Assembly: GCA_903935335.1 (NCBI GenBank)
Contig: CAIZRG010000054.1
Coordinates: forward strand, 106,306 to 170,305
Source of the DNA: Oligoflexia bacterium
GTDB lineage: Bacteria > Bdellovibrionota > UBA1018
DNA length: 64,000 nt
Direction of reading: 5' to 3'
The position numbers were made by a program, and so were the translations under genes. Below, piece by piece: positions 14,543-64,000 of the stretch (its first letter is position 1; the number at the start of each line of letters is the position of its first letter). The notes below the pieces were generated by a model. That model saw only the letters and a program-made list of their open reading frames with translations, did no database searches and had not been told where the DNA came from.

Positions 14543-14583
14543 CAAAAAACCCAAATCATTCGAAAGAATGGTTTGGGTTTTTG
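14543..14583. terminator. Hairpin/terminator upstream of the AbiE operon
   Basis: CAAAAAACCCAAATCATTC-GAAA-GAATGGTTTGGGTTTTTG. Confidence 0.6.
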
Positions 14584-14662
14584 TTGCTCCTTGTGTTTAT
14601 TGTATTATACTGTATTGTCAATAACAGGAAATTAAGGATAATAGAATTTTAAGTGTAACAAA

Positions 14663-15490
14663 ATGAGTCTATCGCTAACTGGTCCTGAAATTAAGTTTCT
14701 TTCTTGGGCGCAAAACCGAAAGAGGTTTGTTGTTCGCTCTGGAGACGCACAAACGTCATTGAAGATATCCAAACAACAGGAAGCGAAGATTTATTCTTCA
14801 CTGACTCAGCGAGGTGTGATCGCCCAGATTAAACGTGGACTTTATCTCGTGCCACCGACGATTCCGCCTGGTGGGAAGTGGGCACCGTCCGCTTTCTTGA
14901 TTTTGGATGTCGCCATGTCTGACATTGAAGCCAGTCAATATCAAATAACTGGAATGTCAGCCTTTAACCTGTATGGATTAACTGAGCAGATTCCCAATCG
15001 GATTGATGTTTACAATGACAAGATATGGGGAGAGAAAAATCTCGCTGGTCAGGAGTTTCGATTTATTAAAACCGACCGATCGAGATTGGGCTATACAAGG
15101 AACGTTAAAACGGATGATCAAGGTGTTTTGGGAGGTCGAGAAGTTCAGGCTCCTTATAGTAATCTGCCCCGTGCTATTTTTGATGCGGTCTATGATTATG
15201 AGCGTTTTGGAACTCTACCCAATGCCTACCAGTGGATCAGGGTCAGATTGGGTGAAAAAGAAAAGATGGCTGAGTTTGTCGAAATCTGTCTCAAGTTGGG
15301 AAATGTTTCGACACTCAGGCGAATTGGTTTTTTTTTGGATCAGGTGAATTTTTCTAGCGTCGTGGTAGCAAGGTTCAAACGAAAGCTGAAGAAAACAACC
15401 TCCTATATTCCGCTTGATCCGACCCGACCTAACAGAGGCAAGACATACAGAGATTGGGGGATTATCGACAATGAATCCATTCCCGCATGA
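14663..15490 (+). CDS. Type IV TA antitoxin, AbiEi family
   Basis: wHTH-like IKRGLYLVP, ITGMSAFNLYGLTEQIP, RAIFD, LRRIGFFL. Overlaps the toxin gene. Confidence 0.85.
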   Translation: MSLSLTGPEIKFLSWAQNRKRFVVRSGDAQTSLKISKQQEAKIYSSLTQRGVIAQIKRGLYLVPPTIPPGGKWAPSAFLILDVAMSDIEASQYQITGMSAFNLYGLTEQIPNRIDVYNDKIWGEKNLAGQEFRFIKTDRSRLGYTRNVKTDDQGVLGGREVQAPYSNLPRAIFDAVYDYERFGTLPNAYQWIRVRLGEKEKMAEFVEICLKLGNVSTLRRIGFFLDQVNFSSVVVARFKRKLKKTTSYIPLDPTRPNRGKTYRDWGIIDNESIPA

Positions 15491-47623: not shown

Positions 47624-49519
47624 TCAGGATCTTTTTCCTCGGTACTTGAATTTAAGATGGCGGTGTTTTTTGATTTTCTCAAATTTGAGTCGAGGATGTT
47701 TAGGATCAAGCAAGGGGTGCTCTGTTGTATTAATTTCTTTTTGCTGCTCAATGTATTGGATGAGAGCATCTCGAGCCATCAGACCTGTAGAAACTCTGAT
47801 TCGGTCTGCTGGGATTTGAGAAATGGGCCATGCGAGATCATCGCCTCCCGTTGTTAAAAAATCCAGTGTTGCTAGGGTATAGAGTTGATTTGGATCAAGT
47901 TTGCTTCCCTGAGATAATCGAACATCTAAAAGCCGGTTTTTTTTCCAAATTTCAAACTTTCCATCTCCATTCAGATCTTCGAAGGGAGCATCGAAGGAAG
48001 GGTCAATGAGTTGCAATTGTAAACCAGAGATGGATCCAAATCCTCGTGCACCGCTATGAGAAACTTTAAGAATGGTTCGGAGTTCTTTTTCATTCACTTG
48101 AAGCGTGACGATGCTGTTGTCAAAGGGAAAAGCTCTGAAAACATCTCCGTAAGTAATCGGCCCTGCTTCTAATGGAGAACGCACTCCTCCTGAGTTAACA
48201 TAGGCAAAGTCGGCATGAGTTAAGGTCCGGATGGCATCAGCCAGTAGATTTCCTAGCTCTGACTCCCCCATTCGGACATTTTCAACTGGACGAAGAGCCA
48301 CTCCGATTTGCTTTTTCTTAAGGGCTTGAGCTTTTTGAATTGGTTTTTCAACCAGTAATAGAGTTTTTGAGTCAGGTTCAATGGGCTTTCCATGAAATTT
48401 TGCCTGTATCAATGGACCTCTACCGTTCTTAGGAGCTAAGCGGTCTCCATTGCAGTCATTTTGATTTTGGAAGATATGAGTACAGACTGGAATGGGTCCT
48501 TCAATTCTGGAAAGCTCCGGAAGCAGTTTATTTTGAGACCAGTCATAAGTGAGATAGATCAGATTAAAATATCGGCCAAAAGCTCCTCCTTGAATGACAG
48601 GGACTCCAGCTACCCAATGATGAACCACTTGGTGAGAATGTCCTGCAATGACTCCATCTACAGTTCCTAGTGGGAGAGATTGTAAAAGCTCAACCATTTC
48701 ATCCTGTTCTCCGCACCTTCCTTGGGGATCTGTTGGTTTTCTTAAAAGTCGAGTGGATGGATTAGAACGACCTGATTCACACGCCAGTCCTACGTGGCTT
48801 GTGATTAAAATGAGATGAGCACCGAGTCTTCTTAAAGCTTGAGACTCTCTTAAGGTTGCTTGTTTGAGGTCTTCAAATTGAAGAGTCTTCACATTTTCAA
48901 CTTGGGTGGTTTTCGGAGTATCAAGAGTGGATAAGCCTAAGATTCCAATTTTAAGTCGACCCGCCTGTAAAAGAAGAGAAGGAGTCGTATTTTGAAAAGA
49001 GATCAGCTGATTCGTTTCTGTATCTTTTATATTAGAAGCTAAATAAGGATATTTGGCTTCTTTCATTCGTTTTTTTAAAGTAAGAAGTCCAAAGTCAAAT
49101 TCGTGATTTCCAATGGCAGCAGCCTGAAGGCCTGCAGCATTAAAAAACTGAACCATGGGAGCACCTTCCTCCAGATTACTTTCAACCGATCCTTGAAACT
49201 GATCTCCGGCATCAAGCCAGATCAGATGCTCCTGAAACTCAGATCGAAGAATCTGGATGAACGATGAAAGGACGGCAATGCCTCCTGCCTGATACTGAAT
49301 GCTTTGGGTTTTTCCTGCTTCTTCACGGGTATTGAGAGTCGAAGGAAGAATAGCACCATGCAAATCATTCGTTCCTAAAATAACAATAGTTTCAAGATCG
49401 TGAGTTTGTTTGGAGTTTTCATTTTTAGAGGGGGAACTACAGCTCGAGAGTAAAAGAATCAGAGTGATCAGAAGGAAGATAGATCTGTCACCTGGAGAGG
49501 GAATAGACTGGAAGTTCAT
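47624..49519 (-). CDS. 5'-nucleotidase/UDP-sugar hydrolase lipoprotein
   Basis: Lipobox LLSSC, TNDLHG, DAGDQFQG, GNHEFD, GHSH, NSGGVR, PFDN. Confidence 0.93.
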   Translation of the reverse strand: MNFQSIPSPGDRSIFLLITLILLLSSCSSPSKNENSKQTHDLETIVILGTNDLHGAILPSTLNTREEAGKTQSIQYQAGGIAVLSSFIQILRSEFQEHLIWLDAGDQFQGSVESNLEEGAPMVQFFNAAGLQAAAIGNHEFDFGLLTLKKRMKEAKYPYLASNIKDTETNQLISFQNTTPSLLLQAGRLKIGILGLSTLDTPKTTQVENVKTLQFEDLKQATLRESQALRRLGAHLILITSHVGLACESGRSNPSTRLLRKPTDPQGRCGEQDEMVELLQSLPLGTVDGVIAGHSHQVVHHWVAGVPVIQGGAFGRYFNLIYLTYDWSQNKLLPELSRIEGPIPVCTHIFQNQNDCNGDRLAPKNGRGPLIQAKFHGKPIEPDSKTLLLVEKPIQKAQALKKKQIGVALRPVENVRMGESELGNLLADAIRTLTHADFAYVNSGGVRSPLEAGPITYGDVFRAFPFDNSIVTLQVNEKELRTILKVSHSGARGFGSISGLQLQLIDPSFDAPFEDLNGDGKFEIWKKNRLLDVRLSQGSKLDPNQLYTLATLDFLTTGGDDLAWPISQIPADRIRVSTGLMARDALIQYIEQQKEINTTEHPLLDPKHPRLKFEKIKKHRHLKFKYRGKRS

Positions 49520-50472: not shown

Positions 50473-52155
50473 GTGAAACGATTAAGAGAAAGTAAAATTC
50501 ATTATTTTTTAGCTGCTCAATTACTTGTTGTCAGCAGTTTATCTTTTGCTATGGTGACAGATGATCAGGAAGGAAGTTCCGGTGCTATAGTGACAGATGA
50601 TCAGGAAGAAAGTTCCGGATCAAAGTCTCAAGGCAAAATGGTCATTCATTCTACTGCTGAGCGGCTTCCTGGAAAGTATATTGTTGTTTTTAAACAAGAT
50701 GCACCTCCGACTCGAGTGGCAGAGCTGCTGGATGCAAAGGGGCCATCCAGTGAAATAAAAGAAGTTTTTCAGAATGTATTTCAGGGGTATACCGCTGAAC
50801 TTACTGAAGAAAAGTTAGATGAGGTTATTGCTGATCCAGATGTTGAGTTTGTGGAAGAAGACTCAATGCGGAAATTGATTTATTTCCCAGAAGAAGAAAA
50901 CCCCCCAGGTTTATCTATGAATGCTGTACAGCCGAATGTTCTTTCTTGGGGATTAGATCGTATTGATCAGCCTAATCTTCCGTTGAGCAAAGAATATTAT
51001 TACGAACAGACCGGGCGGGGTGTGAGTGCCTATGTTGTTGATACTGGGATTAGAAAGTCTCACATTGACTTTGAAGGTCGTATTGGAAAGGGTTTTAGTG
51101 CCATTTCTGATGGTCATGGTGAAGATGACTGTCAGGGGCATGGAACTCACGTTGCAGGGACGATTGGCGGAAAGCGATTTGGTGTAGCTAAAGAAGTCAC
51201 TCTTCATTCTGTCAGAGTGCTAGGTTGCGAAGGTGATGGTGCTATTTCTGGTGTTATTGCTGGATTGGATTGGGTGAAGGCTAATCATGTCGGTCCCTCT
51301 GTAGTGAACTTGTCTTTAGGAGGATCTCCTTCTGCTGCTATTGATAATGCAGTCAAAAGTTTGATTCGCAGTGGAGTGACAGCTCTGATTGCTGCAGGAA
51401 ACTCGAATGCAGATGCTTGTAAAGAATCTCCCAGTCGAGTTCCAGAGGCGATTAAGGTAGGAGCAACGAGTTCTAATGATTCAAGAGCCTCGTATTCAAA
51501 CTTTGGGTCTTGTGTGACTTTATTTGCTCCAGGCACTCAGATCACAAGTGCATGGAGTGACTCTGATAGCGATCAGAAGACGATTTCCGGGACATCGATG
51601 GCTACCCCTCACGTTGCAGGAGTTGCAGCGTTGGCTTTGGAGATATCTCCAAATGCGACACCCGAGCAAGTCAAGCAGATGATTATGAGAGCTGCTGTTC
51701 CAAATAAAGTGAAGGATCCAGCAGGTTCTCCGAATTACTTGCTGCAAAACAGTGTCAAGGCTTTGAGTGATTCAACTCCAAATCCAAGGGAACCCGAACA
51801 AAGACCCAATCCAACTCTTCCAGTTTCACCCCCAGTCTTACCCATTGACTCTTCTGGTCAGTATATCAAGTCCAGTGGAAATGTGAATGCTCCTTATTGG
51901 GTTTACGAACCTAATGGCGGACATCTTTATTCTCAATACCGTGAAAAACAGGAAATTTGGCTTCGGGCTGTTGACCCAAATGCAGTTTTTAAGCTAGAAA
52001 TCTTGAAATGGGGAAAAAAATGGGAAGTCGTTGGTGAGGCTATGGCATCCTCGGTAGAAGATGCTCATTTAGTTGAGGTAGGCTCTGGCTATTACTTGCT
52101 GCGAGTGACTGCTGTAACCCAAGGGGGAGATTATACTCTTTGGATTAAAAAGTAA
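50473..52155 (+). CDS. Secreted S8 subtilase (aqualysin/proteinase K-like) with I9 propeptide and C-terminal beta domain
   Basis: WGLDRIDQ, VVDTGI, HGTHVAG, GTSMATPHVAG. Confidence 0.95.
   Translation: MKRLRESKIHYFLAAQLLVVSSLSFAMVTDDQEGSSGAIVTDDQEESSGSKSQGKMVIHSTAERLPGKYIVVFKQDAPPTRVAELLDAKGPSSEIKEVFQNVFQGYTAELTEEKLDEVIADPDVEFVEEDSMRKLIYFPEEENPPGLSMNAVQPNVLSWGLDRIDQPNLPLSKEYYYEQTGRGVSAYVVDTGIRKSHIDFEGRIGKGFSAISDGHGEDDCQGHGTHVAGTIGGKRFGVAKEVTLHSVRVLGCEGDGAISGVIAGLDWVKANHVGPSVVNLSLGGSPSAAIDNAVKSLIRSGVTALIAAGNSNADACKESPSRVPEAIKVGATSSNDSRASYSNFGSCVTLFAPGTQITSAWSDSDSDQKTISGTSMATPHVAGVAALALEISPNATPEQVKQMIMRAAVPNKVKDPAGSPNYLLQNSVKALSDSTPNPREPEQRPNPTLPVSPPVLPIDSSGQYIKSSGNVNAPYWVYEPNGGHLYSQYREKQEIWLRAVDPNAVFKLEILKWGKKWEVVGEAMASSVEDAHLVEVGSGYYLLRVTAVTQGGDYTLWIKK
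50547..50618 (+). repeat. 36-bp tandem duplication in the subtilase pre-pro region
   Basis: TGCTATGGTGACAGATGATCAGGAAGGAAGTTCCGG followed by TGCTATAGTGACAGATGATCAGGAAGAAAGTTCCGG. Confidence 0.9.
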
Positions 52156-54158: not shown

Positions 54159-55808
54159 TTGAATCCGTTCATGGCTAAATTACCTCAGTCAAATAAGATT
54201 ACGGCAAGCAGTACTGCTGAGTATTTTTCAAAAAATCTGCAACAGGTAGGTTTTTCATCTCAAACAAAAGCTATTTTAACAACTTTAAAAGAAGCGGTTG
54301 ATAACGCTCTAGATGCGTGCGAAGAGGCTGGTCTTTTACCAGAAGTTTTTGTTTTGATCGAAAAAGTCGGGCCTGGATCTTTGAAAAACTCAGATCAGGT
54401 TCGAATTCGAGTTGAAGATAATGGACCTGGAATTGATCTTGAAGATGTTCCTAAAGTATTTGGAGAGTATTTAGCTTCTTCCAAGTTTGGTCGAGGGCGT
54501 TGTTCACGAGGGCAGCAAGGGATAGGCATTTCTGCTGCAACAACTTGGGCACAGCTGACGAGTGCAGTAGGGGCTCGTGTGATTACCAAAACAAAGTCTA
54601 TGCGCAAAGCGGTATCTTGTATCGTAGAAGTAGATATTAAGAATAATCGTGGAATGATGAAGGAGCGTGCATCTCTGGATTGGGATCGCCCTCATGGCGT
54701 TTTGGTAGAGTTTTTGGTGGATGGACGGATTCAATTAAATGGCGAGGCAGGGTTACTTAACTATTTAAATGGGACAGCTTTAGTGAATCCTCATTTAACC
54801 TTGCGATTCAAAGTTCCAGAGGTGGAAGAACAAAAGATTGAAAGAGTGAGTCAGACACTTCCAGAAGTACCAGAAGCCACAGAGCCTCACCCTCACACCA
54901 TGAAATTAGGTGAGTTTATTGCTCATTCGCATCTTTTTGGTCGAGTGAAGGTGGAAAGCTGGCTTAAGAAGGGTTTCTCTCGAGTTCATGAAGGTGTTTT
55001 GAAGGAATTAGTAGCCCATGGAGTAAAAAAAGATATTTTAATCAAGTTAGTTGATTCTCTAGGTGAGTCTGAGTTTAAACAACTGTTTATCGGCTTGCAA
55101 AATCTCAAGTTGATGGCACCTTCCACGAAGTCTGTTTTGTCGATTGGGGAAGATGGTTTTTCAAAGAGCATTCAACGGTTAGGGGCTGTTGATTTTTTTT
55201 CGGTGGTTTCGAGAAAACCTACGATTTGTGATTTTAAACCGGTTCAGGTTGAAGTGGCTGTTGCTCGTTTAGAGAATAAAGCTCAGGATTCAGAGACCTC
55301 CGTTCAAGTTTTAAGGTTTGCCAATCGGGTTCCGCTTCAGTTTGATAAGGCAGCATGCGCCATTGTTCATGCGATTGAATCGGTGAATTGGCGTTCTTAT
55401 GGGTTGGTCCAGCCTAAAAATTCGATTCCTCAAGGACCGTTTATTATTGCTGTGAGTGTGGTATCTCCCTTTATTAAGTTTAAAAATGCTTCAAAAGAGA
55501 CCATTGATGCGTCAGATGAATTGGTTGAGGAAATTCGAAGAGCCTTGATTCAGGCAGGCCAGAAGCTATCCAAGCATATTAGAAAGGAAGTCAAGGCTAA
55601 CGAGCTTGAAGAAAAAATCCGGCATATTGAGCAGTTTTGTCCAATTTTAGTGGATGGGTTATGTCGAATGACTCAGGCCAGTGCCGAGCGTCGAAAAAAA
55701 GCGGAGGCTGGATTAGTGAAGATCCTTGGAAGAGAAGCTCGTGAGACGGAGCAGGAGTTAGCCCAGGCCCAGGCAGTGCTGGAAGCACAAAAGGAGAGTC
55801 AGCTATGA
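54159..55808 (+). CDS. top6B: DNA topoisomerase VI subunit B
   Basis: GHKL motifs KEAVDNALDA, VEDNGPGI, SRGQQGIG, plus RFANRVPL and ASKE. Confidence 0.93.
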   Translation: MNPFMAKLPQSNKITASSTAEYFSKNLQQVGFSSQTKAILTTLKEAVDNALDACEEAGLLPEVFVLIEKVGPGSLKNSDQVRIRVEDNGPGIDLEDVPKVFGEYLASSKFGRGRCSRGQQGIGISAATTWAQLTSAVGARVITKTKSMRKAVSCIVEVDIKNNRGMMKERASLDWDRPHGVLVEFLVDGRIQLNGEAGLLNYLNGTALVNPHLTLRFKVPEVEEQKIERVSQTLPEVPEATEPHPHTMKLGEFIAHSHLFGRVKVESWLKKGFSRVHEGVLKELVAHGVKKDILIKLVDSLGESEFKQLFIGLQNLKLMAPSTKSVLSIGEDGFSKSIQRLGAVDFFSVVSRKPTICDFKPVQVEVAVARLENKAQDSETSVQVLRFANRVPLQFDKAACAIVHAIESVNWRSYGLVQPKNSIPQGPFIIAVSVVSPFIKFKNASKETIDASDELVEEIRRALIQAGQKLSKHIRKEVKANELEEKIRHIEQFCPILVDGLCRMTQASAERRKKAEAGLVKILGREARETEQELAQAQAVLEAQKESQL

Positions 55809-56947
55809 TTAACAAAGAAACCATACCCAAATTAAGCAAAGAGCTTTGTAACCGACTTCTGGCTGATTTAGAGAGAGCTAAAAGACCGATTTTGTATGCT
55901 ACGAAGTGCTCTTTAGATAATGCGAATTACAATCATAAAGTGGGATATCTAACGCCTGGATCTAAAAAAGTGGCAACTGAACTCAATGTGAGTTCAGTTA
56001 AAAAGATGTCTCGAGCTATTTTTATGCTTGAGATCTTGCTTCGTAATATTGATACAGGGGCCGTGAACACGAAACGTGAACTTTATTATATTAGTAAAGG
56101 TGAGATCAAGCATGATGCTCATCTTAAACCTCTTGATTTTGCGGATCAGGATGAGTCTGATGAGATTGTTGATTTTATTTGTGAAATGCTGGAGTGCTAT
56201 CGTGAGGAGCTCAATTGTTATGCGAATGATCGGGGGGGGCAAACCTATTCTCAGCAGTTGGTCGTCACGGAAACTTTACCGGATGGGGATCAAGCGGTGG
56301 TTGACTTATCTAAACTGGGGACAACTCCATTTCAGCCTAAAAATCGGCCACAAAACTTAAAGCTTTCAGCAAAGAAAAAAATTGATTTTTGTCTGATTGT
56401 TGAATCTGAAGGTACAGCTAACACTTTGGTGGCCAATGGTTTTACTAAGCGGCATGCGTCTATCTTAATGGGGGCACAAGGGGTACCCTCCAACGCCGTT
56501 CGGGGTTGGTGTAAGTTGATTCAAGATCAGCTTGCAGTTCCTCTTTATTTTTTTGGAGATCTGGACGCATACACGATGCAAAATATTTTTAGAACCTTAA
56601 AAGCAGGTTCAGCTGCTAGTTTAATTAGAAATTCAGATTATTCCGCTCCTGATGTAAGATTTCTTGGAGTTTTGCCGGATGATATTAAAAAATATGATTT
56701 AAATGATTATCCGGTGAAAGAAAACGATGCTCAAGAAGTGAGAGCTTTGAAAAAAGCTCATGATGCTTTAAAGAACGATCCCTTTTTTCAGGACAAAAGG
56801 AATAAAGGTTTAAACCAAATCTTAAAATGGCTTTTAGAAAACAAAAGACGTTGTGAGCAACAAGCTTATTTTACGGTGGATCCCAGAGATCCTACTATGC
56901 CTGAAAAAATCATTGTAGAGAAAATTAAACGTGGAAATTTTGTTTAG
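55805..56947 (+). CDS. top6A: DNA topoisomerase VI subunit A
   Basis: TKRELYY (catalytic Tyr), TOPRIM VESEG, GAQGVP, GDLD, EQQA. Confidence 0.93.
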   Translation: MINKETIPKLSKELCNRLLADLERAKRPILYATKCSLDNANYNHKVGYLTPGSKKVATELNVSSVKKMSRAIFMLEILLRNIDTGAVNTKRELYYISKGEIKHDAHLKPLDFADQDESDEIVDFICEMLECYREELNCYANDRGGQTYSQQLVVTETLPDGDQAVVDLSKLGTTPFQPKNRPQNLKLSAKKKIDFCLIVESEGTANTLVANGFTKRHASILMGAQGVPSNAVRGWCKLIQDQLAVPLYFFGDLDAYTMQNIFRTLKAGSAASLIRNSDYSAPDVRFLGVLPDDIKKYDLNDYPVKENDAQEVRALKKAHDALKNDPFFQDKRNKGLNQILKWLLENKRRCEQQAYFTVDPRDPTMPEKIIVEKIKRGNFV

Positions 56948-56982
56948 TCAAAAGATCCAGATAAATCTTTTGACTAAACAAA
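56938..56982. terminator. Inverted repeat at the end of top6A
   Basis: TTTGTTTAGTCAAAAGAT-ccagataa-ATCTTTTGACTAAACAAA. Confidence 0.7.
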
Positions 56983-57104
56983 ATAAACTAAAAAAATTAA
57001 AACTATAAATTAAATTTAAGTTTATTAGTTTACTTTAGATATAAGTCAGTCCTGTTTTATCTATTTAATGTAAAATAAACTAAATTTATGATAAAATATC
57101 CAGG

Positions 57105-60100
57105 ATGTGTCTCTTTGATTTAAGTTTATTTAAAGTTCTTAAAAAATCAGGCTTCTTGTTTTGTTTATTTTTAATTTCGTGTGCTTCTTCTGATCAAGGG
57201 GGAGGAGGACAGGGAAAATTTTCAGCTCAGAAATCTGAAATTCAAGTTGAAAAATTAATTCTTTTTTCTGGAGAGCAAACAAAAGTCACTCTTCGTCTGA
57301 GGGATGATCAAGGTTCTCCCTTTGTGGATTCAGGGATCAGCGCTGAGTTCAAGCTTCGAGGGGGGGGAAGTCTTGGAGTTTTTGATCCGATGAGAAATCT
57401 TGGGTCAGGAGCTTATCAAGCAATATTTACTGGAGAGATTGCAGGAAGTCCCTCTGAGGTCTTTGGAGTGATCCAAGGAGCAGGAGTCGGGTTTATAGGA
57501 GAAGTTGTTGGGCCACGTGTGCAAGTTGTACCCGGTTCAATTGATGCAAAAAAATCCAGTTTAGAAATTAATAAAGCTAAAATCAAAGCAGGAGAAGAAG
57601 TTGATTTAACTCTGACTCTGAAAGATCAAAAAGGAAATCTTCTTCCTATAGATCATGATAAACTGGACGTTGAATTTTTAATTACAAAAGAAGATGGAAA
57701 AAGTTTTGGAGTATTTAAAGACCAAAAAGAAAAATCTGGAGTTTATCAAACTACTTTTACTGGAAGGATTGCTGGTACTTCTGCACTGATTTACGCTCAA
57801 GATAAAAATGGCAATCACATTGTTTCAAAAATTGAAGGGGTCCAGATTGAAGTTGAACCCGGAGAAGTTTCACCTGCGGACTCCAGCTTAACGGTAACTT
57901 TCACACAAGTACAATCCGGATCAGCCGTTAGGGTGACTCTGACTCTCATGGATAGTTATAAAAATTTGATTAATCACATCGATTCCAAAAATCTTCGTTT
58001 TATTTTGTCTGATATTCCAGGTCAAAGCATTGGGGAACTGAGTCCAGTAAGTTTCAATAAGGATACTTATACAGCATTGTTTACAGGTAAAAGCGCAGGT
58101 ACCCCAGTTCGAATCACCCCTGAGTTAAATAATAATAAAATAAGTAAATCTGTTGATATTGAAGTCATTCCTGGTCCTTTTTCTCCGAGTCATTCAATAT
58201 TGAAGATATTGAAATCTGATGCCTCTGATGTTTCGATAACTGCTGGAAGTTCTGTGAAGGTGAGTTTTGAGCCCAAAGATTCTAACAGTAATAAGCTGAC
58301 GGGAAGAAATGTTACCTTCGATTTGGTTGGAGGCCTGCGTAAGGGTAATTTATGGGTTGAAAGTTTTTCTGATGATACTGAATCAAATGGAGTTTATCAA
58401 ACAAATTTTACAGGTTATGCTTCAGGTCCAAGAGAAATTTTTGCAAAACTTAATCAGGAATTTCCAGGTGGCCCTCAACCACATGGTGTTTTACGACATG
58501 TTTCTCTAATTATCAATTCTGCAGCTCCAGACGAAGGTGAATCGAAGTGTAATTTGGATAAAGATGAAGTTCAATCTGGGTCCTCGCTACAAGGAACGTT
58601 GAAGCTTTTTGATAGATATCACAATCCGGTGCAAATTCCCGTTGATCAGATTCAATGGAAGAGCTCTGGGGTTGCAGGTCAAAGCACTGGCGAGTGGAGT
58701 AATGCTGAGCTGAAAAAAGGCTTTGAAAATATCTATTTGTCAAATTTTACAGGGGCATTAGCAGGAAGTTCAGCTGAGCAAAAAGTTGAGCTCACACTGT
58801 CCAAAGATAAAAAACTGTCTATCGTCTGTACGCCTCATGTGAGAGTGGTACCCGGTTTAATTGATGCAAAAGGATCCAGTTTAGAAATCAAGAAAGCTAA
58901 AATCAAAGCAGGAGAAAAAGTTGATTTAACTCTGACTCTGAAAGATCAAAAAGGAAATCTTCTTCCTATAGGCTATGATAAAGCGACAGTTGACTTTTCA
59001 ATTGAAAGAATAGATGGAAAAAGTTTTGGGGACATTAATGGGAAAATAGAAAAAGCTGATGGAGTTTATGAAGCTACTTTTACTGGAACGACTGCTGGTA
59101 CTTCTGCACTGATTTACGCTAAAGCTACAATAGACAATAAAGATTCTTTAGACATTGGAGGGGTGCAGATTGAAGTTGAACCGGGAGAAGTTTCACCTGA
59201 GCACTCCACCTTAAAGGTAAGTTCAAAAGAAGTAAAATCCGGATCAAAAGCTCAGGTGACTCTGAGTCTCAAAGATCGTTATGGCAATCTGATTATTCAG
59301 AAGGAGTCCCAAGATCCTGTTTTTAGTGTGTCGAAGGATCCAGGTCAAAGCACTACTAGCGATCTGAGTAAAGTAAGTTTCAGTAAGGGTATTTATACAG
59401 CATCTTTTACAGGCATAAAAAAAGGTACCCCAGCTCAAATCACCGCTCAGCTCAATAAAAATAGAATGGGTGAAGCCGTTGATTTTGAAGTCATTCCCGG
59501 TCCTCCTTCTTTAAGTCAGTCAATATTAAAGATAGACGATCCTACAGTGGTTGTTGGCAGGATTGCAAAAGTAACCTTAGAACTCAGAGATGATCATGAC
59601 AATCCATTGACGAGTGGGGGTCATAAAATTAGGTTTTTACCAAATACAGGATCTGGTTTGAGTCAAGGAAATCTTCAAGCAGTGAATGACCTAAATAATG
59701 GGACCTACGAAGTTGAATTTCAGGCAAAAAAAGCAGGCAGTGAAATTAAACTTTCTGCTTTTTGGGACGATGCTCCTGGTGAAAATAAGACATTTAAAAG
59801 TACAGTCGGAATTACTGTAGAAATTGCTGCTTTTTTTGGTGTGAAGCAATGGAATCCTTCACGTCTTAAGTCGATTCCTAGACGTAAGCTTTGGAATTTT
59901 GAATCTAAAAACTCACAGTATTCTGTTGAAGGCTTCAAGCAATGCACAAAGTCTTATCAAGAACAATGGAAAGCCCTTCAGGATAGAAAAATTATAAATT
60001 CATTAATGAATAAGACTTGTTGGTCTGATTCACAAAAGAAAGAAATTCAAGCATTAGGAGAAGAGCTGAATCATAGCTTCTCTGAAGTGAGTCAACTCAA

Positions 60101-63100
60101 AGTAGGGAATGAGTCCAAGGAATTGACCCTAGAAATGCAGGGTTTGTTAGTTCAAGTAGGCCAAACTTATCAAAACCTTCAAGAGCATTTATCTTATTGT
60201 CGTATTGCTCAAGTGACTGAACCTTGGAATCAGATTTCTTTATCTCCTAATAGACTAGATGATGGGTTAAGTTTTACAAGTGAAGATAAAGCCTTTCTTC
60301 ATGTGCTTGGAGATTTATTTGGAACAGAGTCAGGTCTTGAAGGGCAAACTCTCGAGGAAAGCACCGAGCTTTTAAAACGACGGTTATCGATCATTGACAA
60401 AATGAGTAAAGATTTAAAGGAGCACAAGTACATTGCGTCCTCTCAAGCTGCCAACCCATGTCTGGGGATTGATGGAGGTTACCATCCAGAATTAGAAGGA
60501 AGGTTTCCTCCTAAGCCGGATCTAGACGTTGTTCTACTCGAAGATATAGTCAGGCATGGAGAACAAGCTGTCAAATTGTCAGGATTCTTTGGGAGGAATC
60601 TCGGAGAATTTGTGACTGATTTTAAATCTAATCTTGATCAGATCAAAACAAATCAAGATTGGTTTTATTTCTTGGGTGGGGCAGTAGGGCATGCAGTCGT
60701 TTACCTAGTCCAAAAACAAGGTCCGGATCAGTATCAATTTCGAGTGTATAATAGCGGGGATGGTCTTGGATTTCATGGATCCATCTTGGATGGATCAAAA
60801 GAGTATGTTTTCCCTTATTACGAAATAAAAAATATTAATAGAAAAACTCTCAGTCGGATTTCTTTTCTTAAAGGTTTAAGGGAATTGAAATTTCAATCAG
60901 AGACTCCTAACTCAAATATGGCTTTTCTTTATGACAATATTTTAAATGAGCTAGGTGGGGAAGTTACAACCATTCAAGCTCATTCAAGAGAGTTCTTGGA
61001 TAGTCAAAAATCTGGGACTTGTAGTTATTATGTTTTGCCCTATTTTCAAACCGACAGATTGAAAGATACCAGTTTAGGACGATCTTTAGAGTTTTTCATT
61101 CAGTCTGCATATTTAGAACTTTATTTTAAAATAAATCAAGAAAAAATTAAAAAAAGTCAACCGATACAAAGACTTTTTCAAAAAGGAATTCAGTATTATT
61201 CAGAAGAAATTTCAAAAGATCTTTCAGAAATTCCTTTAAGCCAAAGGGTAGAAGATAAGAATAGATCTGTTGATTTTGGAATGGCAAGAGAAGCATCTGA
61301 AAGAGTTCAAAAATATCAAGATTTTTTAGATCGAGTAAAAAAAGAGCGAAAAGCAAATCAAATCATTGTTTCTTTAAAAAATTTATCTCAATTTTTAGGT
61401 GAAATTTTCACAAAATTCACAACCATTGGTGCAGATTTGATCTCATCTGCTCCCCTCTCGGAGAAGCCTATTTCACTTCTTGAGTTGAGTCATTGGACTC
61501 CAAATCGATCAAATCCTGATCAAATAGTTGATGAACTGAGGAAATTTATTAAACAAATGCAGCCAGGAAAAAATTCTCAACCTTCAGAAAAAGATTATGA
61601 AAGTAAAATTATCTTGGGTGGATTTCAAGAGATTGTGAAGCGACTTCCAGTTGAAAAGTCTTTTTGGGAAGGACTAGCAACATATCAGCTCAAATCAGTG
61701 ATTGAGTATTTTAGCGATTTGAGTCAGTTTCATTTTTGGTCTTTAGTTCAGCTTCATTCTAAAGAGAAGGCTCATTTAACTGGGATTGCTCCAGAAAGAA
61801 TAGTAGCTCAGATAAAACTTCTGACACTAACTGAGCAGATCATCCGAATCTATGGGGAAAGAGGAGAAGGAATATACCCTGATTTCGAGATTTCTATTTT
61901 TAAAGATTTCCCCAGTCTTTATCATCCTTATTTGAAATACTTTGTTTTTCCTCAAGAAAAGAAAAAAGGAGTGTCAGCCTCTCAATGGGTCAGTCAGATT
62001 AGAATTGAAGATCATGATTGGCAAAAAGTTTTAATAGATGAGCTGATGCCTTATTGGGATATTCAAAAAAAATCAAGCAATATCAATTCTTCTATTTTTG
62101 AATGGATGAGATATCCACTTTTTTATTCAGGTTATCCTGTATGCGATGAAAGAATTATATTAGATCATGCTGGAGTTCAAGATACTCGTCTATGGAGTCA
62201 TCCCTATGGAAGTCCAATTTTACATGATTTAAAATGGGCTGATTTGAAATGGGCTCATGAAAAATTTCCAAATATCTCAACTGCTGTTGAGCTATCTAAT
62301 CTTTTTGCTTACAAAAAAATCTCAGGTCATCCTAAGATTCCTGATTTGTTTTTTGATGTTCGAGATATTAGTTTTATTACTCATTATTTGCTTTCTGGTT
62401 CCTTTGATTCAAGTATTTTAAATCAACCTAGTAATTACGGTAGAGATAGTATTCGAGAGTCTGTAGAAAAATTATTTCTATACACGCCAGAACACTTAGA
62501 CCGAGTTGCTTTAGCATTTAATTTTTCAAAAGCAGTAAAAAAATACCAATATGGAGACTATAAACAAAATTATTCGAATGTAGGTTACACATATTTTAAT
62601 GGTTCAAGAGAAATGAATTCAGACAATTTAAAAGATTACCTTAAAAATAAAAAAATAGTAGAAATTTATACGAATCAAAATTCATATATTGGAAGCCCAA
62701 ATTTTAGTTTAGACTTAGCTACGCAAAGAGGTGATCTTGGGCTTTGGACTGAGTTACTTGAAGATAAAAAATTATCAAATAGCGATGGATTTTCCTACTT
62801 AAAGAATCTTTCATCCCAAGAACTGATTTGTGAGCCTCAGGCTTTATGTCGAGTGCCACTTAAGTCAAATTCAAGTGAGACACGAGAAGTGCCAATTGCA
62901 ACTCTTGAAATGCAGCGGCAATTACTGAATTTAAATTCACCCGTTGTTGCTCTATCTTACTTTTCTGAACGACCTCATTTATTAAAAGAAAAAAGATGGG
63001 AAATTTTATTTAAATTCATTGTTTTTCAACCGACTCAGTTATTGCTAGAGCACCAAAAAAATCCTGTTTTTTTTCAACAATTTGAAAAATTTTTAAAGGT

Positions 63101-64000
63101 AAATTTTGAAAAAAATTTGAAAGAGGAAGATTTTGAAACCGCTGCTTTTTATTCAAGAATGGGGAATCTTTTAGATGAGTGGTCTTCTCGAGTAAAATCA
63201 GCTTCATCTTACGCTATTCTAAAAATAGACAGAAACAAATGGTCTTATCAGGGGCAGATTCAACTGCTGAGTAAACTCCGAGAACCTATCTCTGATTTAA
63301 AAAATATTTTGATGAGAGATATAATTCGTTCCTACCGATATGCTGATTTATCTGTGATTTCTGAAGAGAGCTTATCATTATTCGTTCAGGCAGTTATTTA
63401 CCGAGATCGAAACTCACTCATGAGTCAGGATTATTTTGATGCGGAAGAGGAAAATGCATCTGAAAGTGTCTATCAATTAAAAAGGAAGGATTTGATAGAT
63501 CGGTTAAGTCAATGGAAATTAGAAGTTAAACGAAAATTTTTTAACCAAGTAATATCCTATTTTGTTCCGCAAGAGCTCAAAAACGAATGGGCTCACTCTT
63601 CATGGATCCAAGGTATCGAAAAGGAACCAGAAGTTTGGACTTCTGAGTCACTAAATGGGAGAAAAATTGCGATTGATTTCAGTCGGCCTCGTATTTTGAT
63701 GGATGGAGCTGAGCAACGAATTTTTCCAGGAGAAATTGCAAATCTTCTAAAGTTTAAAAAAGTAATTTCTTGGAACTCTGAAAATCCATATGTGAAATGG
63801 CTAGGCGATCGAAAATATGAACTCATTGATTCTAGAGATGGGCATAGTGTTAGAGTAAATCAATCTAACAATTTGGTGATTCAAAAAAAATGGGGAAATC
63901 AATGGTATCAGCTTTTAGATGATTCTTATGTGAATGAAAATGCTGTGAATCCTGATGGATTTCAGGAATTAGACTGGCAACAGAATTTAAACTGGTCATT
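57105..64000 (+). CDS. Giant lipoprotein (>2,290 aa, 3' end outside window): 8 invasin-like Ig repeats + putative cysteine protease + long helical region
   Basis: Manually translated with no stop from ATG 57105 to the window end. Lipobox LISC (Cys 57180). Ig repeats ~57215-59825. GGAVGHA, YNSGDG and QKSGTC at 60670-61025. Absent from the ORF track because the stop lies outside the window. Confidence 0.88.
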   Translation, partial: MCLFDLSLFKVLKKSGFLFCLFLISCASSDQGGGGQGKFSAQKSEIQVEKLILFSGEQTKVTLRLRDDQGSPFVDSGISAEFKLRGGGSLGVFDPMRNLGSGAYQAIFTGEIAGSPSEVFGVIQGAGVGFIGEVVGPRVQVVPGSIDAKKSSLEINKAKIKAGEEVDLTLTLKDQKGNLLPIDHDKLDVEFLITKEDGKSFGVFKDQKEKSGVYQTTFTGRIAGTSALIYAQDKNGNHIVSKIEGVQIEVEPGEVSPADSSLTVTFTQVQSGSAVRVTLTLMDSYKNLINHIDSKNLRFILSDIPGQSIGELSPVSFNKDTYTALFTGKSAGTPVRITPELNNNKISKSVDIEVIPGPFSPSHSILKILKSDASDVSITAGSSVKVSFEPKDSNSNKLTGRNVTFDLVGGLRKGNLWVESFSDDTESNGVYQTNFTGYASGPREIFAKLNQEFPGGPQPHGVLRHVSLIINSAAPDEGESKCNLDKDEVQSGSSLQGTLKLFDRYHNPVQIPVDQIQWKSSGVAGQSTGEWSNAELKKGFENIYLSNFTGALAGSSAEQKVELTLSKDKKLSIVCTPHVRVVPGLIDAKGSSLEIKKAKIKAGEKVDLTLTLKDQKGNLLPIGYDKATVDFSIERIDGKSFGDINGKIEKADGVYEATFTGTTAGTSALIYAKATIDNKDSLDIGGVQIEVEPGEVSPEHSTLKVSSKEVKSGSKAQVTLSLKDRYGNLIIQKESQDPVFSVSKDPGQSTTSDLSKVSFSKGIYTASFTGIKKGTPAQITAQLNKNRMGEAVDFEVIPGPPSLSQSILKIDDPTVVVGRIAKVTLELRDDHDNPLTSGGHKIRFLPNTGSGLSQGNLQAVNDLNNGTYEVEFQAKKAGSEIKLSAFWDDAPGENKTFKSTVGITVEIAAFFGVKQWNPSRLKSIPRRKLWNFESKNSQYSVEGFKQCTKSYQEQWKALQDRKIINSLMNKTCWSDSQKKEIQALGEELNHSFSEVSQLKVGNESKELTLEMQGLLVQVGQTYQNLQEHLSYCRIAQVTEPWNQISLSPNRLDDGLSFTSEDKAFLHVLGDLFGTESGLEGQTLEESTELLKRRLSIIDKMSKDLKEHKYIASSQAANPCLGIDGGYHPELEGRFPPKPDLDVVLLEDIVRHGEQAVKLSGFFGRNLGEFVTDFKSNLDQIKTNQDWFYFLGGAVGHAVVYLVQKQGPDQYQFRVYNSGDGLGFHGSILDGSKEYVFPYYEIKNINRKTLSRISFLKGLRELKFQSETPNSNMAFLYDNILNELGGEVTTIQAHSREFLDSQKSGTCSYYVLPYFQTDRLKDTSLGRSLEFFIQSAYLELYFKINQEKIKKSQPIQRLFQKGIQYYSEEISKDLSEIPLSQRVEDKNRSVDFGMAREASERVQKYQDFLDRVKKERKANQIIVSLKNLSQFLGEIFTKFTTIGADLISSAPLSEKPISLLELSHWTPNRSNPDQIVDELRKFIKQMQPGKNSQPSEKDYESKIILGGFQEIVKRLPVEKSFWEGLATYQLKSVIEYFSDLSQFHFWSLVQLHSKEKAHLTGIAPERIVAQIKLLTLTEQIIRIYGERGEGIYPDFEISIFKDFPSLYHPYLKYFVFPQEKKKGVSASQWVSQIRIEDHDWQKVLIDELMPYWDIQKKSSNINSSIFEWMRYPLFYSGYPVCDERIILDHAGVQDTRLWSHPYGSPILHDLKWADLKWAHEKFPNISTAVELSNLFAYKKISGHPKIPDLFFDVRDISFITHYLLSGSFDSSILNQPSNYGRDSIRESVEKLFLYTPEHLDRVALAFNFSKAVKKYQYGDYKQNYSNVGYTYFNGSREMNSDNLKDYLKNKKIVEIYTNQNSYIGSPNFSLDLATQRGDLGLWTELLEDKKLSNSDGFSYLKNLSSQELICEPQALCRVPLKSNSSETREVPIATLEMQRQLLNLNSPVVALSYFSERPHLLKEKRWEILFKFIVFQPTQLLLEHQKNPVFFQQFEKFLKVNFEKNLKEEDFETAAFYSRMGNLLDEWSSRVKSASSYAILKIDRNKWSYQGQIQLLSKLREPISDLKNILMRDIIRSYRYADLSVISEESLSLFVQAVIYRDRNSLMSQDYFDAEEENASESVYQLKRKDLIDRLSQWKLEVKRKFFNQVISYFVPQELKNEWAHSSWIQGIEKEPEVWTSESLNGRKIAIDFSRPRILMDGAEQRIFPGEIANLLKFKKVISWNSENPYVKWLGDRKYELIDSRDGHSVRVNQSNNLVIQKKWGNQWYQLLDDSYVNENAVNPDGFQELDWQQNLNWS
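57528..59534 (+). repeat. Internal duplication of a two-Ig-domain unit (57528-58208 vs 58848-59534)
   Basis: Long identical DNA blocks, e.g. AAAGCTAAAATCAAAGCAGGAGAA and GTTGATTTAACTCTGACTCTGAAAGATCAAAAAGGAAATCTTCTTCCTATAG, at an offset of ~1320 bp. Confidence 0.9.

Follow-up and report, generated by a model that had tools for sequence, protein, structure and literature searches.

Described counterparts exist for several parts of the protein reported here. Inverse autotransporters such as invasin and intimin carry a stalk of tandem Ig domains of the Invasin_D3/Big_1 type. The nearest fold for the putative catalytic head is found in the Legionella effectors LegA15, AnkD and AnkH, proteins of about 430-490 residues. 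The accessible text on LegA15 describes a slow GTPase in which the C361S and Q356A substitutions abolish activity, H268A has little effect, and K367 (Cys+6) and R291 (Asn+1) are important for activity (PMC9757750); for AnkD, a literature search on function found nothing beyond that paper. For AnkH, the accessible text lists the motifs rGHa, D/NRg and GNCSWANV, relates the domain to the CE-clan protease XopD, names RavZ as similar to the AnkH CPLD, and reports that protease activity was not observed in vitro (PMC6712400). Some lipoprotein toxins are also active in the cytoplasm of a recipient cell, as described for SitA of myxobacteria in the accessible portions of two reports (PMC5562445, PMC8546572). 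Finally, giant proteins with a DUF3638 domain constitute a large and catalogued but unstudied family: a literature search covering titles and abstract openings returned no functional study of these giants and no activity for any member.

Here we describe a DUF3638 giant encoded in a 64,000-nt stretch of a metagenome-assembled Oligoflexia genome (contig C54, 106306-170305; hereafter the window, in whose positions all coordinates are given). Its stalked form, predicted to be exported, is the new part. On balance, we favor the reading that it is an exported, lipid-anchored giant whose Ig stalk carries a thiol-hydrolase head and a SecA-like motor and which acts in another cell. The family thereby gains testable handles, namely a near-invariant Cys-His-Asn-Gln site on a Legionella-effector fold, a SecA-like motor, and a probable and unexpected extracytoplasmic address, on a lipid anchor and with a prolyl isomerase gene alongside. 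The features of the gene are collected in Table 1.

Table 1. Features of the giant gene, with positions in the window unless a contig is named
Feature	Residues	Position	Strand	Basis
Start codon, signal peptide and lipobox L-I-S-C with predicted lipidated Cys26	1-26	57105..57182	+	Translation, hydropathy
Stalk of eight Ig-like repeats, Invasin_D3/Big_1 type	37-905	57213..59819	+	Pfam, repeat alignment
Conserved junction with the helical N-terminal part of the family body (begins VEIAAFFGV...)	906-1039	59820..60221	+	Colinear with P0003, P0005, P0012
Head and helical cap, LegA15/AnkD/AnkH type	1040-1420	60222..61364	+	AF2 model, VIA, Foldseek
Putative general base (GHAV motif)	His1196	60690..60692	+	His in 144/146; first residue of model strand E157-167
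Putative third triad member (YNSGDG motif)	Asn1216	60750..60752	+	Asn in 143/146; after model strand E170-176
Putative oxyanion-hole residue, five before Cys	Gln1301	61005..61007	+	Gln in 128/146
Putative nucleophile (SGTCS motif)	Cys1306	61020..61022	+	Cys in 143/146; first residue of model helix H267-280
Start of the middle region (about 1,500 aa); gene runs on to the C54 end (aa 2939), then C18		61365..64000	+	Open frame; colinear with P0003, P0012
C-terminal piece (P0010): DUF3638, Walker A/B, SecA-like ATPase, acidic E-rich linker, C-terminal domain	1,440 aa	C18	-	Pfam, motifs, model

Gene structure and assembly

The first-pass annotation of the window reported a frame of 2,298 codons open to the window edge, and exactly such an ORF was found (57105..63998), beginning with an ATG that is the first in-frame start after a stop. 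When the full ORF was retrieved, the frame proved to extend without a stop as far as the C54 contig end (2,939 codons), and a further 1,440 colinear codons, closed by a stop, were found on the minus strand at the end of contig C18; the protein therefore comprises at least 4,379 residues. The two pieces do not overlap. By tblastn, P0003 is colinear across them, with 35.9% identity in a 2,139-aa alignment and 41.1% in one of 1,500 aa. P0012 is encoded on a contig of 494,685 bases with stalk and body in the same order as here; a single HSP (aa 135-2881 here, 29-2708 in P0012) carries its alignment through the stalk/body junction, and it also aligns to the C18 piece (6-1434). Contigs from four public pond-metagenome runs of two studies, possibly the very samples from which the genome derives, cross the junction without any joint, and one public contig of 46,187 bases covers the entire stretch compared and extends past it.

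A chimeric join near 59830 was raised in the first pass as an objection to the fusion. It was considered and is rejected in view of the single HSP of P0012 and the public contigs that cross the junction. More generally, a misassembly of the metagenome bin that joined stalk to body might be suspected from the origin of the gene in a MAG of 59 contigs, over two of which it is split, and from its G+C content of 35-36%, which places it among the lowest 3-4% of 9-kb windows in a genome of 40.0% G+C. Given that an independent protein has the same order of parts and that the contigs of all four runs pass the junction seamlessly, we regard such an artifact as exceedingly improbable. As judged from this colinearity, the two pieces form one genuine gene, about 4,400 codons long, and not a chimera. 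Scans upstream of the start gave one promoter-like site (56970-56997), within shuffle expectation, and no terminator.

Signal peptide and Ig stalk

The N-terminus of the protein, MCLFDLSLFKVLKKSGFLFCLFLIS-C, displays a basic KK n-region, a hydrophobic core and a lipobox that fits the pattern [LVI][ASTVI][GAS]C, with the Cys at 57180-57182; these elements, read by eye, agree with the type II signal peptide claimed earlier. The signal peptide is the only hydrophobic 19-residue window with a mean Kyte-Doolittle value of at least 1.5 in all 4,379 residues. Lipoboxes were likewise present in P0003, P0005, P0008 and P0012 as well as in giant ORFs at six related loci (L028, L029, L030, L031, L032 and L037). 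Ig domains of the Invasin_D3/Big_1 type are a typical feature of extracytoplasmic proteins. Judging from its N-terminus and domain content, the protein is likely to be exported and lipid-anchored.

The eight Ig repeats anticipated in the first pass, with an end near 59825, were all recovered. They measure 104-117 aa each, start at aa 37, 141, 250, 354, 471, 581, 691 and 796, lie far beyond chance, and have Pfam matches (Invasin_D3, E 5.9e-44 in seven stretches; Big_1, 1.8e-15 in three stretches; Filamin, 4.1e-08). Identities between repeats four positions apart (R2/R6, 70%; R3/R7, 55%; R4/R8, 41-48%) point to the duplication of a block of repeats, and since Tandem Repeats Finder detected 0 arrays in the stalk DNA, the repeats would be old at the DNA level. 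By tblastn, the stalk matched only itself in its own genome and nothing in 17 related loci.

The description of the stalk as invasin-like holds for its tandem Invasin_D3/Big_1 domains, but not for the remainder of an inverse autotransporter, as neither Pfam nor NCBIfam detected an inverse-autotransporter barrel. The NCBIfam model IatC matched the Ig part only, with 64.4 bits against a cut-off of 2,400, and Pfam identified only Ig families in aa 1-905, with no beta-barrel or LysM. In contrast with inverse autotransporters, the protein carries a lipobox anchor, and its tip is an enzyme-like body rather than a lectin-like domain. The proposed fusion of an adhesin-type stalk to an effector-like body was borne out, and it is rare: among the 153 relatives examined, a homologous stalk was found in P0012 only. 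The stalked form can be seen as adhesin modules recruited to lengthen an enzyme's reach.

Relatives of the protein

The C18 piece contains DUF3638 (PF12340; 71.1 bits, E 1.1e-19, cut-off 31), as do all of the first seven homologues, which are 2,612-3,731 aa long and share 27-48% identity over the head. The head was matched by 299 cluster representatives (E<=1e-3; clusters at 50% identity), and 153 relatives that were fetched had a median length of 3,195 aa. With these giants the protein shares DUF3638 over the cut-off, similar size, colinearity and the same H-N-Q-C head, and it differs from them in combining a lipoprotein signal with an eight-domain Ig stalk. We hold the architecture set out in Table 1 and the membership in the DUF3638 family with high confidence. 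The likeness to DUF3638 giants of environmental chlamydiae suggested in the first pass stood as far as the family is concerned, but the named close relatives are MAGs of Oligoflexia, Oligoflexales, Deltaproteobacteria and Myxococcales, not chlamydiae.

DUF3645 (PF12359) was absent at E<=0.1 from P0010, P0003 and P0008 and at E<=0.01 from P0012, P0060, P0107, P0076 and P0145; the bacterial members examined thus have no DUF3645 detectable by Pfam. The relatives P0107, P0076 and P0145, which lack a signal peptide, gave DUF3638 together with DEAD and ALTTAQ repeat matches below the cut-offs, and Pfam assigned them no family over the head, no DUF6606 and no DUF3645. In a FastTree phylogeny of the head, which has no support values, a hydrophobic N-terminus, as scored by a crude hydropathy proxy, was found in 25 of the 26 members of this protein's clade and in 7 of 68 sequences outside it, placing the protein in a clade of DUF3638 giants that mostly appear to bear signal peptides.

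A profile search of genome contigs with a four-sequence alignment recovered six loci, and a search with the single head sequence recovered none. Among 301 sampled genomes of the phylum, PF12340 exceeded its cut-off in this genome only, so DUF3638 is not a lineage-wide host-adaptation trait. Given this distribution and the low G+C content of the gene, a horizontal origin was considered.

A cysteine-protease-like head

The AF2 model of the head (pLDDT 89.4, pTM 0.88) was compared with solved structures by VIA. The best match was LegA15 (7kj6_A, Z 19.9 over 267 aa, 3.1 A; GNP complex 7xql, Z 19.8), followed by AnkD (7ew8_A, Z 18.4 over 258 aa, 3.4 A) and AnkH (6mca, Z 13.6 over 270 aa, 4.9 A), and the next unrelated structures reached Z 6.1 in one comparison and 8.1 in another. 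Foldseek matches to the head had E values of 3e-4 to 3e-3. The head thus has in common with these three proteins the fold of the domain and its helical cap. It also shares their His-Asn/Asp-Cys order and the Q-x4-C spacing of AnkH and of LegA15 Q356/C361 in the accessible text (PMC9757750), and the motifs reported for AnkH (PMC6712400, accessible text) have possible counterparts in GHAV, YNSG and SGTCSYY. In a head-profile search of PDB sequences, the Q-x-S-G-x-C-S motif was aligned to AnkH, at a non-significant E of 0.09.

There are also differences. Sequence identity to the three proteins is 12-14%, a phmmer search of PDB sequences with aa 901-1600 found 0 matches at E<=10, and Pfam matched no peptidase family in the protein and no ankyrin family at E<=1, in contrast with the ankyrin repeats of LegA15, AnkD and AnkH. 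Moreover, the head here is part of a 4,379-residue protein with a predicted export signal. The helical character that the first pass ascribed to about 1,000 residues after the head was seen up to aa 1420, the part modelled.

The positions given in the first pass for the His, Asn, Gln and Cys of a presumed active site were confirmed exactly, and the conservation of these residues was counted in 146 aligned family sequences (Table 1). Flanking glycines are similarly conserved (G1218 in 144, G1220 in 142 and G1304 in 143). The order of the residues, with the Gln ahead of the Cys, is that of the CE clan (Ulp1/SENP, XopD, SseL, YopJ/AvrA, I7L), and in the model the His lies at the start of a strand, the Asn at the end of the next antiparallel strand and the Cys at the start of a helix, as in CE enzymes. 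The earlier assignment to a CE-clan-like protease was upheld in these respects, but solved CE enzymes matched the head weakly (Z 3.8-5.0): monkeypox I7L had Z 4.7, desumoylase 5lnb 4.4, and SseL, AvrA and HopZ1a 3.8 each, with RavZ at 5.0 among the weak matches and a Foldseek probability of 0.10-0.16 for SseL. The close relative P0005 is without both the His and the Cys, indicating that a full-length member can have an inactive head. Based on the model and the conservation of the site, the head is probably an active Cys-dependent hydrolase. These same weak CE matches, the inactivity of AnkH as a protease in vitro in the accessible text (PMC6712400), and the description of LegA15 as a slow GTPase little affected by H268A (PMC9757750, accessible text) weigh against the protease-like chemistry of the favored reading.

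Three other functions for the head were considered. The first pass proposed a surface deubiquitinase or Ubl protease, in which a stalk-displayed CE-clan isopeptidase strips ubiquitin, SUMO or NEDD8 from eukaryotic host proteins. The order, spacing and secondary-structure placement of the H-N-Q-C residues fit CE enzymes, the weak structural matches include a desumoylase, SseL and the poxvirus protease I7L, and the AnkH domain has been likened to XopD (PMC6712400, accessible text). However, the accessible texts on the strong matches LegA15, AnkD and AnkH report no deubiquitinase activity (PMC6712400, PMC9757750), nothing in the data suggests that this bacterium meets eukaryotic cytosol, and the restriction of PF12340 to one sampled genome of the phylum counts against such a role, which we consider unlikely.

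Alternatively, the head may be an autoprocessing domain that cuts near the stalk/body junction and frees the body of about 3,400 residues on cue, much as happens in large toxins with cysteine protease domains. The sequence that follows the spacer is conserved at the junction, with a (V/A)FG(V/M) motif also present in the stalk-less relatives P0003 and P0005, and AvrA and HopZ1a, which according to their entry titles were solved with IP6 bound, appear among the weak structural matches. On the other hand, the same head, with its residues intact, occurs in members that have neither signal peptide nor anchor, and release from an anchor therefore cannot be the ancestral role; we consider self-release of cargo an unlikely function.

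Finally, with LegA15 as the best structural match, including its GNP complex, and with Gln1301 and Cys1306 spaced as the LegA15 Q356 and C361 needed for GTP hydrolysis in the accessible text (PMC9757750), the head could be a nucleotide hydrolase or a nucleotide-gated switch, and the protein a two-nucleotidase machine. This is quite unlikely, given that the positions of LegA15 K367 and R291 are occupied by Pro1312 and Ser1217, that Arg follows the Asn in only 21 of the 146 family sequences, and that the His, dispensable in LegA15 according to the accessible text (PMC9757750), is kept in 144 of the 146. We retain a thiol hydrolase as the most plausible identity of the head.

Middle region and SecA-like motor

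The middle region had no match in Pfam, NCBIfam, PADLOC or PDB sequences. PADLOC reported 0 families on the C54 and C18 pieces, a whole-protein profile gave 0 matches to PDB sequences at E<=1, and ESM Atlas returned no usable match for aa 1401-2939, an outcome that indicates neither novelty nor absence.

In the C18 piece, a Walker A motif, MGAGKTS (in MIMGAGKTSVLL), and a Walker B motif, LIDEVD, are intact, and under a strict pattern both are intact in 21 of 29 signal-bearing relatives. The model of this region (pLDDT 88.3) is a two-lobed, SecA-like ATPase. SecA chains were the best Foldseek matches (E 1.3e-9 to 1e-6), and by VIA they gave Z 17-20 with 430-575 residues aligned at an rmsd of 4.2-5.9 A, compared to Z 15-16 and about 340 residues for DEAD-box helicases. 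The best match is thus to SecA/SecA2, over more residues than the pair of RecA lobes that DEAD-box helicases also have. The motor differs from SecA in that no SecA Pfam family was matched in the protein, that it is embedded in a giant protein predicted to be exported, and that no link to SecYEG was seen; a polypeptide would be its presumed substrate.

Proposed mode of action

Based on the data presented above, the protein would be exported by Sec and then lipidated at Cys26, and it may fold outside the cytoplasm with the aid of the adjoining isomerase. Anchored at the cell envelope, it would use its stalk to hold the catalytic body off the membrane. The head would act as a thiol hydrolase, most likely as a peptidase or isopeptidase in the manner of CE enzymes, and the SecA-like motor would supply it with a polymer, most likely a polypeptide, or remodel one for it. 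Outside the cytoplasm there is no ATP, and an ATPase located there has no fuel. The motor needs ATP and its motifs are conserved in the clade predicted to be exported, which implies that the body must act at a site supplied with ATP. The most plausible such site is in or at the cytoplasm of a prey or host cell that the bacterium touches. Action on or in another cell, considered by itself, is a tentative proposal, and so is the role as a contact weapon put forward in the first pass. A systematically exported ATP motor is a paradox: the protein works in another cell or it acts without ATP, and if the former is true, it would represent a new effector-delivery route in predatory or host-associated bacteria.

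SitA offers a partial parallel, being likewise anchored as a lipoprotein and acting inside another cell in the accessible portions of the reports (PMC5562445, PMC8546572), and the relatives of the present gene include Myxococcales MAGs. Unlike SitA, the gene has no adjacent immunity-like gene, its neighbor being a prolyl isomerase, and transfer is here a proposal. Inspection of the protein sequence and gene neighborhood revealed neither a translocation segment nor a secretion system, and neither an immunity gene nor a receptor-binding tip; these absences, together with the lack of fuel for an extracytoplasmic ATPase, count against the favored reading.

Alternatively, the protein could be a structural or adhesive giant that stays periplasmic or on the surface, with the ATPase and head being relics or ligand binders that perform no turnover. 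Such a role agrees with the lack of ATP outside the cell and with the loss of the His and Cys in P0005, and a Pfam-based search identified other Ig-repeat giants in the genome, in frames of 8,751 codons on contig C6 and 2,149 codons on contig C8. However, the conservation of the Walker A/B motifs and of the H-N-Q-C residues across the clade predicted to be exported argues for selection on catalysis, and we consider a purely structural role very unlikely. Returning to the favored reading of a catalytic body that acts in another cell, a far more specific version can be formulated, albeit as speculation that we regard as doubtful: in Bdellovibrionota- and Myxococcota-like bacteria, the signal-bearing DUF3638 clade would form a novel class of machines that are lipid-anchored and delivered by contact, and whose motor threads target-cell polypeptides into the CE-like head in the prey or host cytoplasm after transfer or anchor release, with a dedicated FkpA/Mip-type isomerase folding the body outside the producer cytoplasm and the Ig stalk lengthening reach here and in the P0012 lineage.

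The adjoining prolyl isomerase gene

The stop codon of the giant gene is overlapped by 4 nt by a gene for an FkpA/Mip-type prolyl isomerase (FKBP_N and FKBP_C, with a hydrophobic N-terminus), which is predicted from its sequence to be membrane-anchored. Scans at this junction gave three promoter-like sites, within shuffle expectation, and no terminator. The absence of an FKBP neighbor from the full flanks of L031, L032 and L037 counts against the favored reading. In 7 of the 17 related loci, about three distinct lineages apart from this one, an FKBP homologue lies next to the giant gene, in line with export.

Extent and integrity of the giant gene

The open frame reported in the first-pass annotation starts at an ATG and runs for 2,298 codons to the window edge, exactly as described; beyond the window no stop interrupts it before C54, the contig carrying the 5' part of the gene, runs out, for a total of 2,939 codons. 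A tblastn search with P0003, the best homologue, placed the remainder on the minus strand at the end of a second contig, C18, as a frame of 1,440 codons that ends in a stop. The encoded protein is at least 4,379 residues long. There is no overlap between the two contig ends, and the residues flanking the break sum to 63, compared with ~51 in P0012, an independent metagenome protein of 4,180 aa from a contig of 494,685 bases, indicating that little or nothing has been lost between C54 and C18.

The possibility that a chimeric assembly had fused the Ig-repeat stalk to the rest of the protein (the body) is very unlikely. P0012 shares the same order of parts (lipobox, six Invasin_D3 stretches plus Big_1, body, DUF3638) and its alignment with the giant protein runs through the stalk/body junction within one HSP. 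In four public pond-metagenome runs, drawn from two studies, contigs also read without a joint across this junction and over everything that follows it in C54, although these runs are not independent of the assembly, because they may be its source. No sign of a chimera was seen in the P0012 alignment or in the public contigs, one of which (46,187 bases, in two of the pond runs) covers the compared stretch completely and reaches beyond the C54 end, by ~39 kb on the usual reading of the coordinates.

Coordinates of the giant gene, its neighbours and related features
Feature	Location	Strand	Remarks
Giant gene, part in window (window = G000:C54:106306-170305)	window 57105..63998	+	
Topoisomerase VI subunits B and A	window 54159-56947	+	549 aa and 380 aa (TP6A_N + Toprim); directly upstream of giant gene
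Secreted S8 subtilase	window 50473-52155	+	I9 propeptide
631-aa protein	window 47624-49519	-	lipoprotein-like N-terminus (LLLSSCSS)
Second, short FKBP-type isomerase	L003:7578-8063	+	161 aa; opposite strand
Truncated globin	L003:8359-8730	+	bacterial type; just beyond FKBP neighbour
FKBP features, P0005-type loci	L029, L033, L034: ~14576-15206		intact FKBP gene upstream of giant gene; second FKBP-like stretch downstream
FKBP features, fourth P0005-type locus	L030: ~11903-12533		partial match upstream, at locus edge; second FKBP-like stretch downstream
Ig-repeat frame	G000:C6, ~17.5-28.2 kb	-	8,751 codons; crowded with Big_1/Invasin_D3 repeats
Ig-repeat frame	G000:C8, ~83.9 kb		2,149 codons; Big_1/Invasin_D3-type domain

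A lipoprotein signal precedes an Ig stalk of restricted distribution

Judged by eye, the N-terminal sequence MCLFDLSLFKVLKKSGFLFCLFLIS-C is built like a lipoprotein signal, as had been claimed, and it is the sole strongly hydrophobic segment in all 4,379 residues. The eight repeats noticed earlier proved to be Ig repeats of 104-117 residues each, occupying aa 37-905, and a Pfam search of this stalk returned Invasin_D3 (E 5.9e-44, seven stretches) along with Big_1 and Filamin. Numbering the repeats R1-R8 in order, R2 and R6 are 70% identical, R3 and R7 55%, and R4 and R8 41-48%, implying that several repeats were copied together as a block.

A strongly hydrophobic N-terminus (mean hydropathy of at least 2.2) was present in 25 of 93 full-length representatives of the family, and 14 of the 93 matched a strict lipobox pattern. 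In a FastTree phylogeny of the head (aa 1040-1420), midpoint-rooted and taken without support values, a hydrophobic N-terminus (at least 2.0, a crude proxy for export) was found in 25 of 26 members of the giant protein's clade vs 7 of 68 elsewhere. The close relatives inspected whole carry a lipobox and, after it, a spacer that is rich in Pro and Ser and often repetitive; in the giant protein and P0012 the Ig stalk takes its place. P0012 was the only one of 153 fetched relatives with an Ig stalk by blastp, and tblastn detected none in 17 related loci. Since the head tree groups the giant protein with both P0012 and the stalk-less P0003, either one gain followed by a loss or two gains could account for the stalk.

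Two loci, L032 and L037, are giant paralogues lying ~14 kb apart on one 56,812-base metagenome contig; counted between stops, they measure 3,599 and 3,684 codons, and each has a lipobox and then a repetitive Pro/Ser/Val-rich spacer (ASPV..., ASKVTP...). Elsewhere in the source genome, long frames on contigs C6 and C8 (see table) imply that giant Ig-repeat surface proteins are native to this organism.

The head resembles a CE-like cysteine hydrolase

The residues proposed as catalytic lie precisely where they had been placed (His1196, Asn1216, Gln1301 and Cys1306), and in an alignment of the giant protein with 145 homologues they are conserved in 144 (His), 143 (Asn), 128 (Gln) and 143 (Cys) of 146 sequences, with the surrounding glycines kept in 142-144. 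P0005, a close full-length relative, has lost both His and Cys. That the giant protein is itself a catalytically idle component of the envelope is an improbable reading.

An AlphaFold2 model of the head, built from an input alignment of 42 rows, was confident (pLDDT 89.4, pTM 0.88). In the model, His stands at the start of a beta strand, Asn comes after the antiparallel strand that follows, and Cys is at the start of a helix, a placement that the available text of the AnkH report describes for AnkH and XopD (PMC6712400). The only significant Foldseek matches were LegA15, AnkH and AnkD (E 3e-4 to 3e-3). A Foldseek-independent search recovered AnkD (Z 18.4) and AnkH (Z 13.6) ahead of a next-best chain at Z 8.1, and a second structural comparison gave Z 19.9 and 19.8 for LegA15. 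Below these, RavZ scored Z 5.0, and the CE-clan enzymes poxvirus I7L, desumoylase, SseL, AvrA and HopZ1a scored Z 3.8-4.7; their recurrence is suggestive at the level of modelled structure, although each match is too weak singly. By sequence, the family profile reached AnkH at E 0.09 only, the aligned piece being the Q-x-S-G-x-C-S motif. The earlier assignment to CE-like cysteine enzymes thus stands for the predicted fold and the conserved site, both of which support a CE-like cysteine hydrolase, while matches to true CE-clan members are weak, and a surface deubiquitinase, as the first-pass annotation had suggested, is quite unlikely.

In the available text, the AnkH triad mattered in infection while protease activity was not detected in vitro (PMC6712400), and LegA15 is reported as a GTPase whose activity was abolished by Q356A and C361S but little changed by H268A, with R291 and K367 also important (PMC9757750). 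The latter two residues correspond to Ser1217 and Pro1312 in the giant protein, and we regard a LegA15-like nucleotide hydrolase as improbable.

The body belongs to an unstudied family and contains a SecA-like motor

A word-indexed search with aa 1050-1450 returned seven proteins of 2,612-3,731 residues (27-48% identity), all seven with Pfam DUF3638, and an exhaustive search returned 299 cluster representatives at E<=1e-3, including 94 that passed the stricter E<=1e-10; the 153 fetched relatives have a median length of 3,195 aa. The link to DUF3638, proposed in the first-pass annotation, was borne out by the C18 piece (71.1 bits; cut-off 31). No functional study was found in the portions of the literature covered for DUF3638, DUF3645, DUF6606, PF12340 and PF12359, and the family is catalogued but unstudied. 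What is new here is a predicted exported, lipid-anchored form, its Ig stalk and its isomerase partner.

The 871 residues around DUF3638 were likewise modelled with confidence (pLDDT 88.3, pTM 0.88), and the model's best Foldseek matches were SecA and SecA2 (E 1.3e-9 to 1e-6). Structural comparison by VIA gave Z 17-20 against SecA/SecA2 (430-575 residues aligned, rmsd 4-6 A) vs Z 15-16 against DEAD-box helicases (~340 residues), implying a likeness somewhat exceeding the two RecA lobes. No SecA family was detected in the giant protein by sequence. The giant protein has complete Walker A (MGAGKTS) and Walker B (LIDEVD) motifs, and a strict pattern found Walker motifs in 21 of 29 signal-bearing relatives. 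The ~1,500-residue middle region had no match in any of the sources searched. Between the motor and the C-terminal domain, the C18 piece (P0010) has a conserved acidic stretch, DEEMEVESEVEQEQEQEQEQEQEEEVES, at aa 1158-1185, and E-rich stretches occupy the equivalent place in the relatives P0003, P0005, P0006 and P0008.

A prolyl isomerase gene adjoins the giant gene

Overlapping the giant gene's stop codon by 4 nt is a gene whose product combines FKBP_N and FKBP_C, the FkpA/Mip architecture, and has a hydrophobic segment at its N-terminus. Of the 17 related loci, 7 (L028, L029, L030, L033, L034, L035 and L036), representing about three distinct lineages, have a homologue with 32-45% identity directly next to the giant gene; such homologues are absent beside it in L031, L032 and L037, all with full flanks. 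An adjoining extracytoplasmic folding helper would fit export of the giant protein, albeit as circumstantial evidence. The four P0005-type loci (L029, L030, L033 and L034) each have a further FKBP-like stretch on the downstream side of the giant gene; in L030 and L034 this match falls into two pieces in separate frames and may be frameshifted. Past the giant gene's FKBP neighbour, a further isomerase and a globin are encoded (see table).

A possible route and workplace

Starting from the architecture, family, conserved site, lipobox and isomerase neighbour, and from two folds known as models, we propose that the protein would leave via Sec, be acylated at Cys26 and fold outside the cytoplasm with the FKBP protein, to be displayed with the Ig stalk as a spacer. 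The head would hydrolyse its substrate by means of the Cys, most likely as a peptidase or isopeptidase, and the SecA-like motor may handle a polymer, perhaps a polypeptide, for it. Alternatively, the head could be an autoprocessing protease whose cut releases the body, which we consider unlikely. Given that selection appears to maintain the motor motifs within the exported clade and that there is no extracellular ATP, the body would most plausibly work in or at another cell's cytoplasm. In the available parts of the reports, SitA of myxobacteria provides a precedent for lipoprotein toxins acting inside recipients (PMC5562445, PMC8546572). Overall, the observations of the first-pass annotation were confirmed, and its interpretation was supported in part.

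Origin of the gene and its upstream neighbours

Named relatives of the head come from MAGs labelled Oligoflexia, Oligoflexales (including P0017, MBP6217611.1), Deltaproteobacteria and Myxococcales. Among 301 sampled genomes of the phylum, PF12340 reached its cut-off in one alone, the source genome itself, and it did so in none of 34 of the same family. The G+C content of the giant gene (36.0% in the C54 part, 35.3% in the C18 part, vs 40.0% for the genome) falls in the lowest 3-4% of the genome's 9-kb windows, with the stalk (38.6%) nearer the genome value than the body (34.9%). Judging from composition and distribution, it is plausible that the body came from a foreign source.

The upstream neighbours, which also include an AI-2E-family transporter, suggest no secretion or immunity system. 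The subtilase and the 631-aa protein place several exported hydrolase-like proteins near the giant gene. The stop and start of the topoisomerase VI B and A genes overlap; type IIB topoisomerases are uncommon in bacteria.
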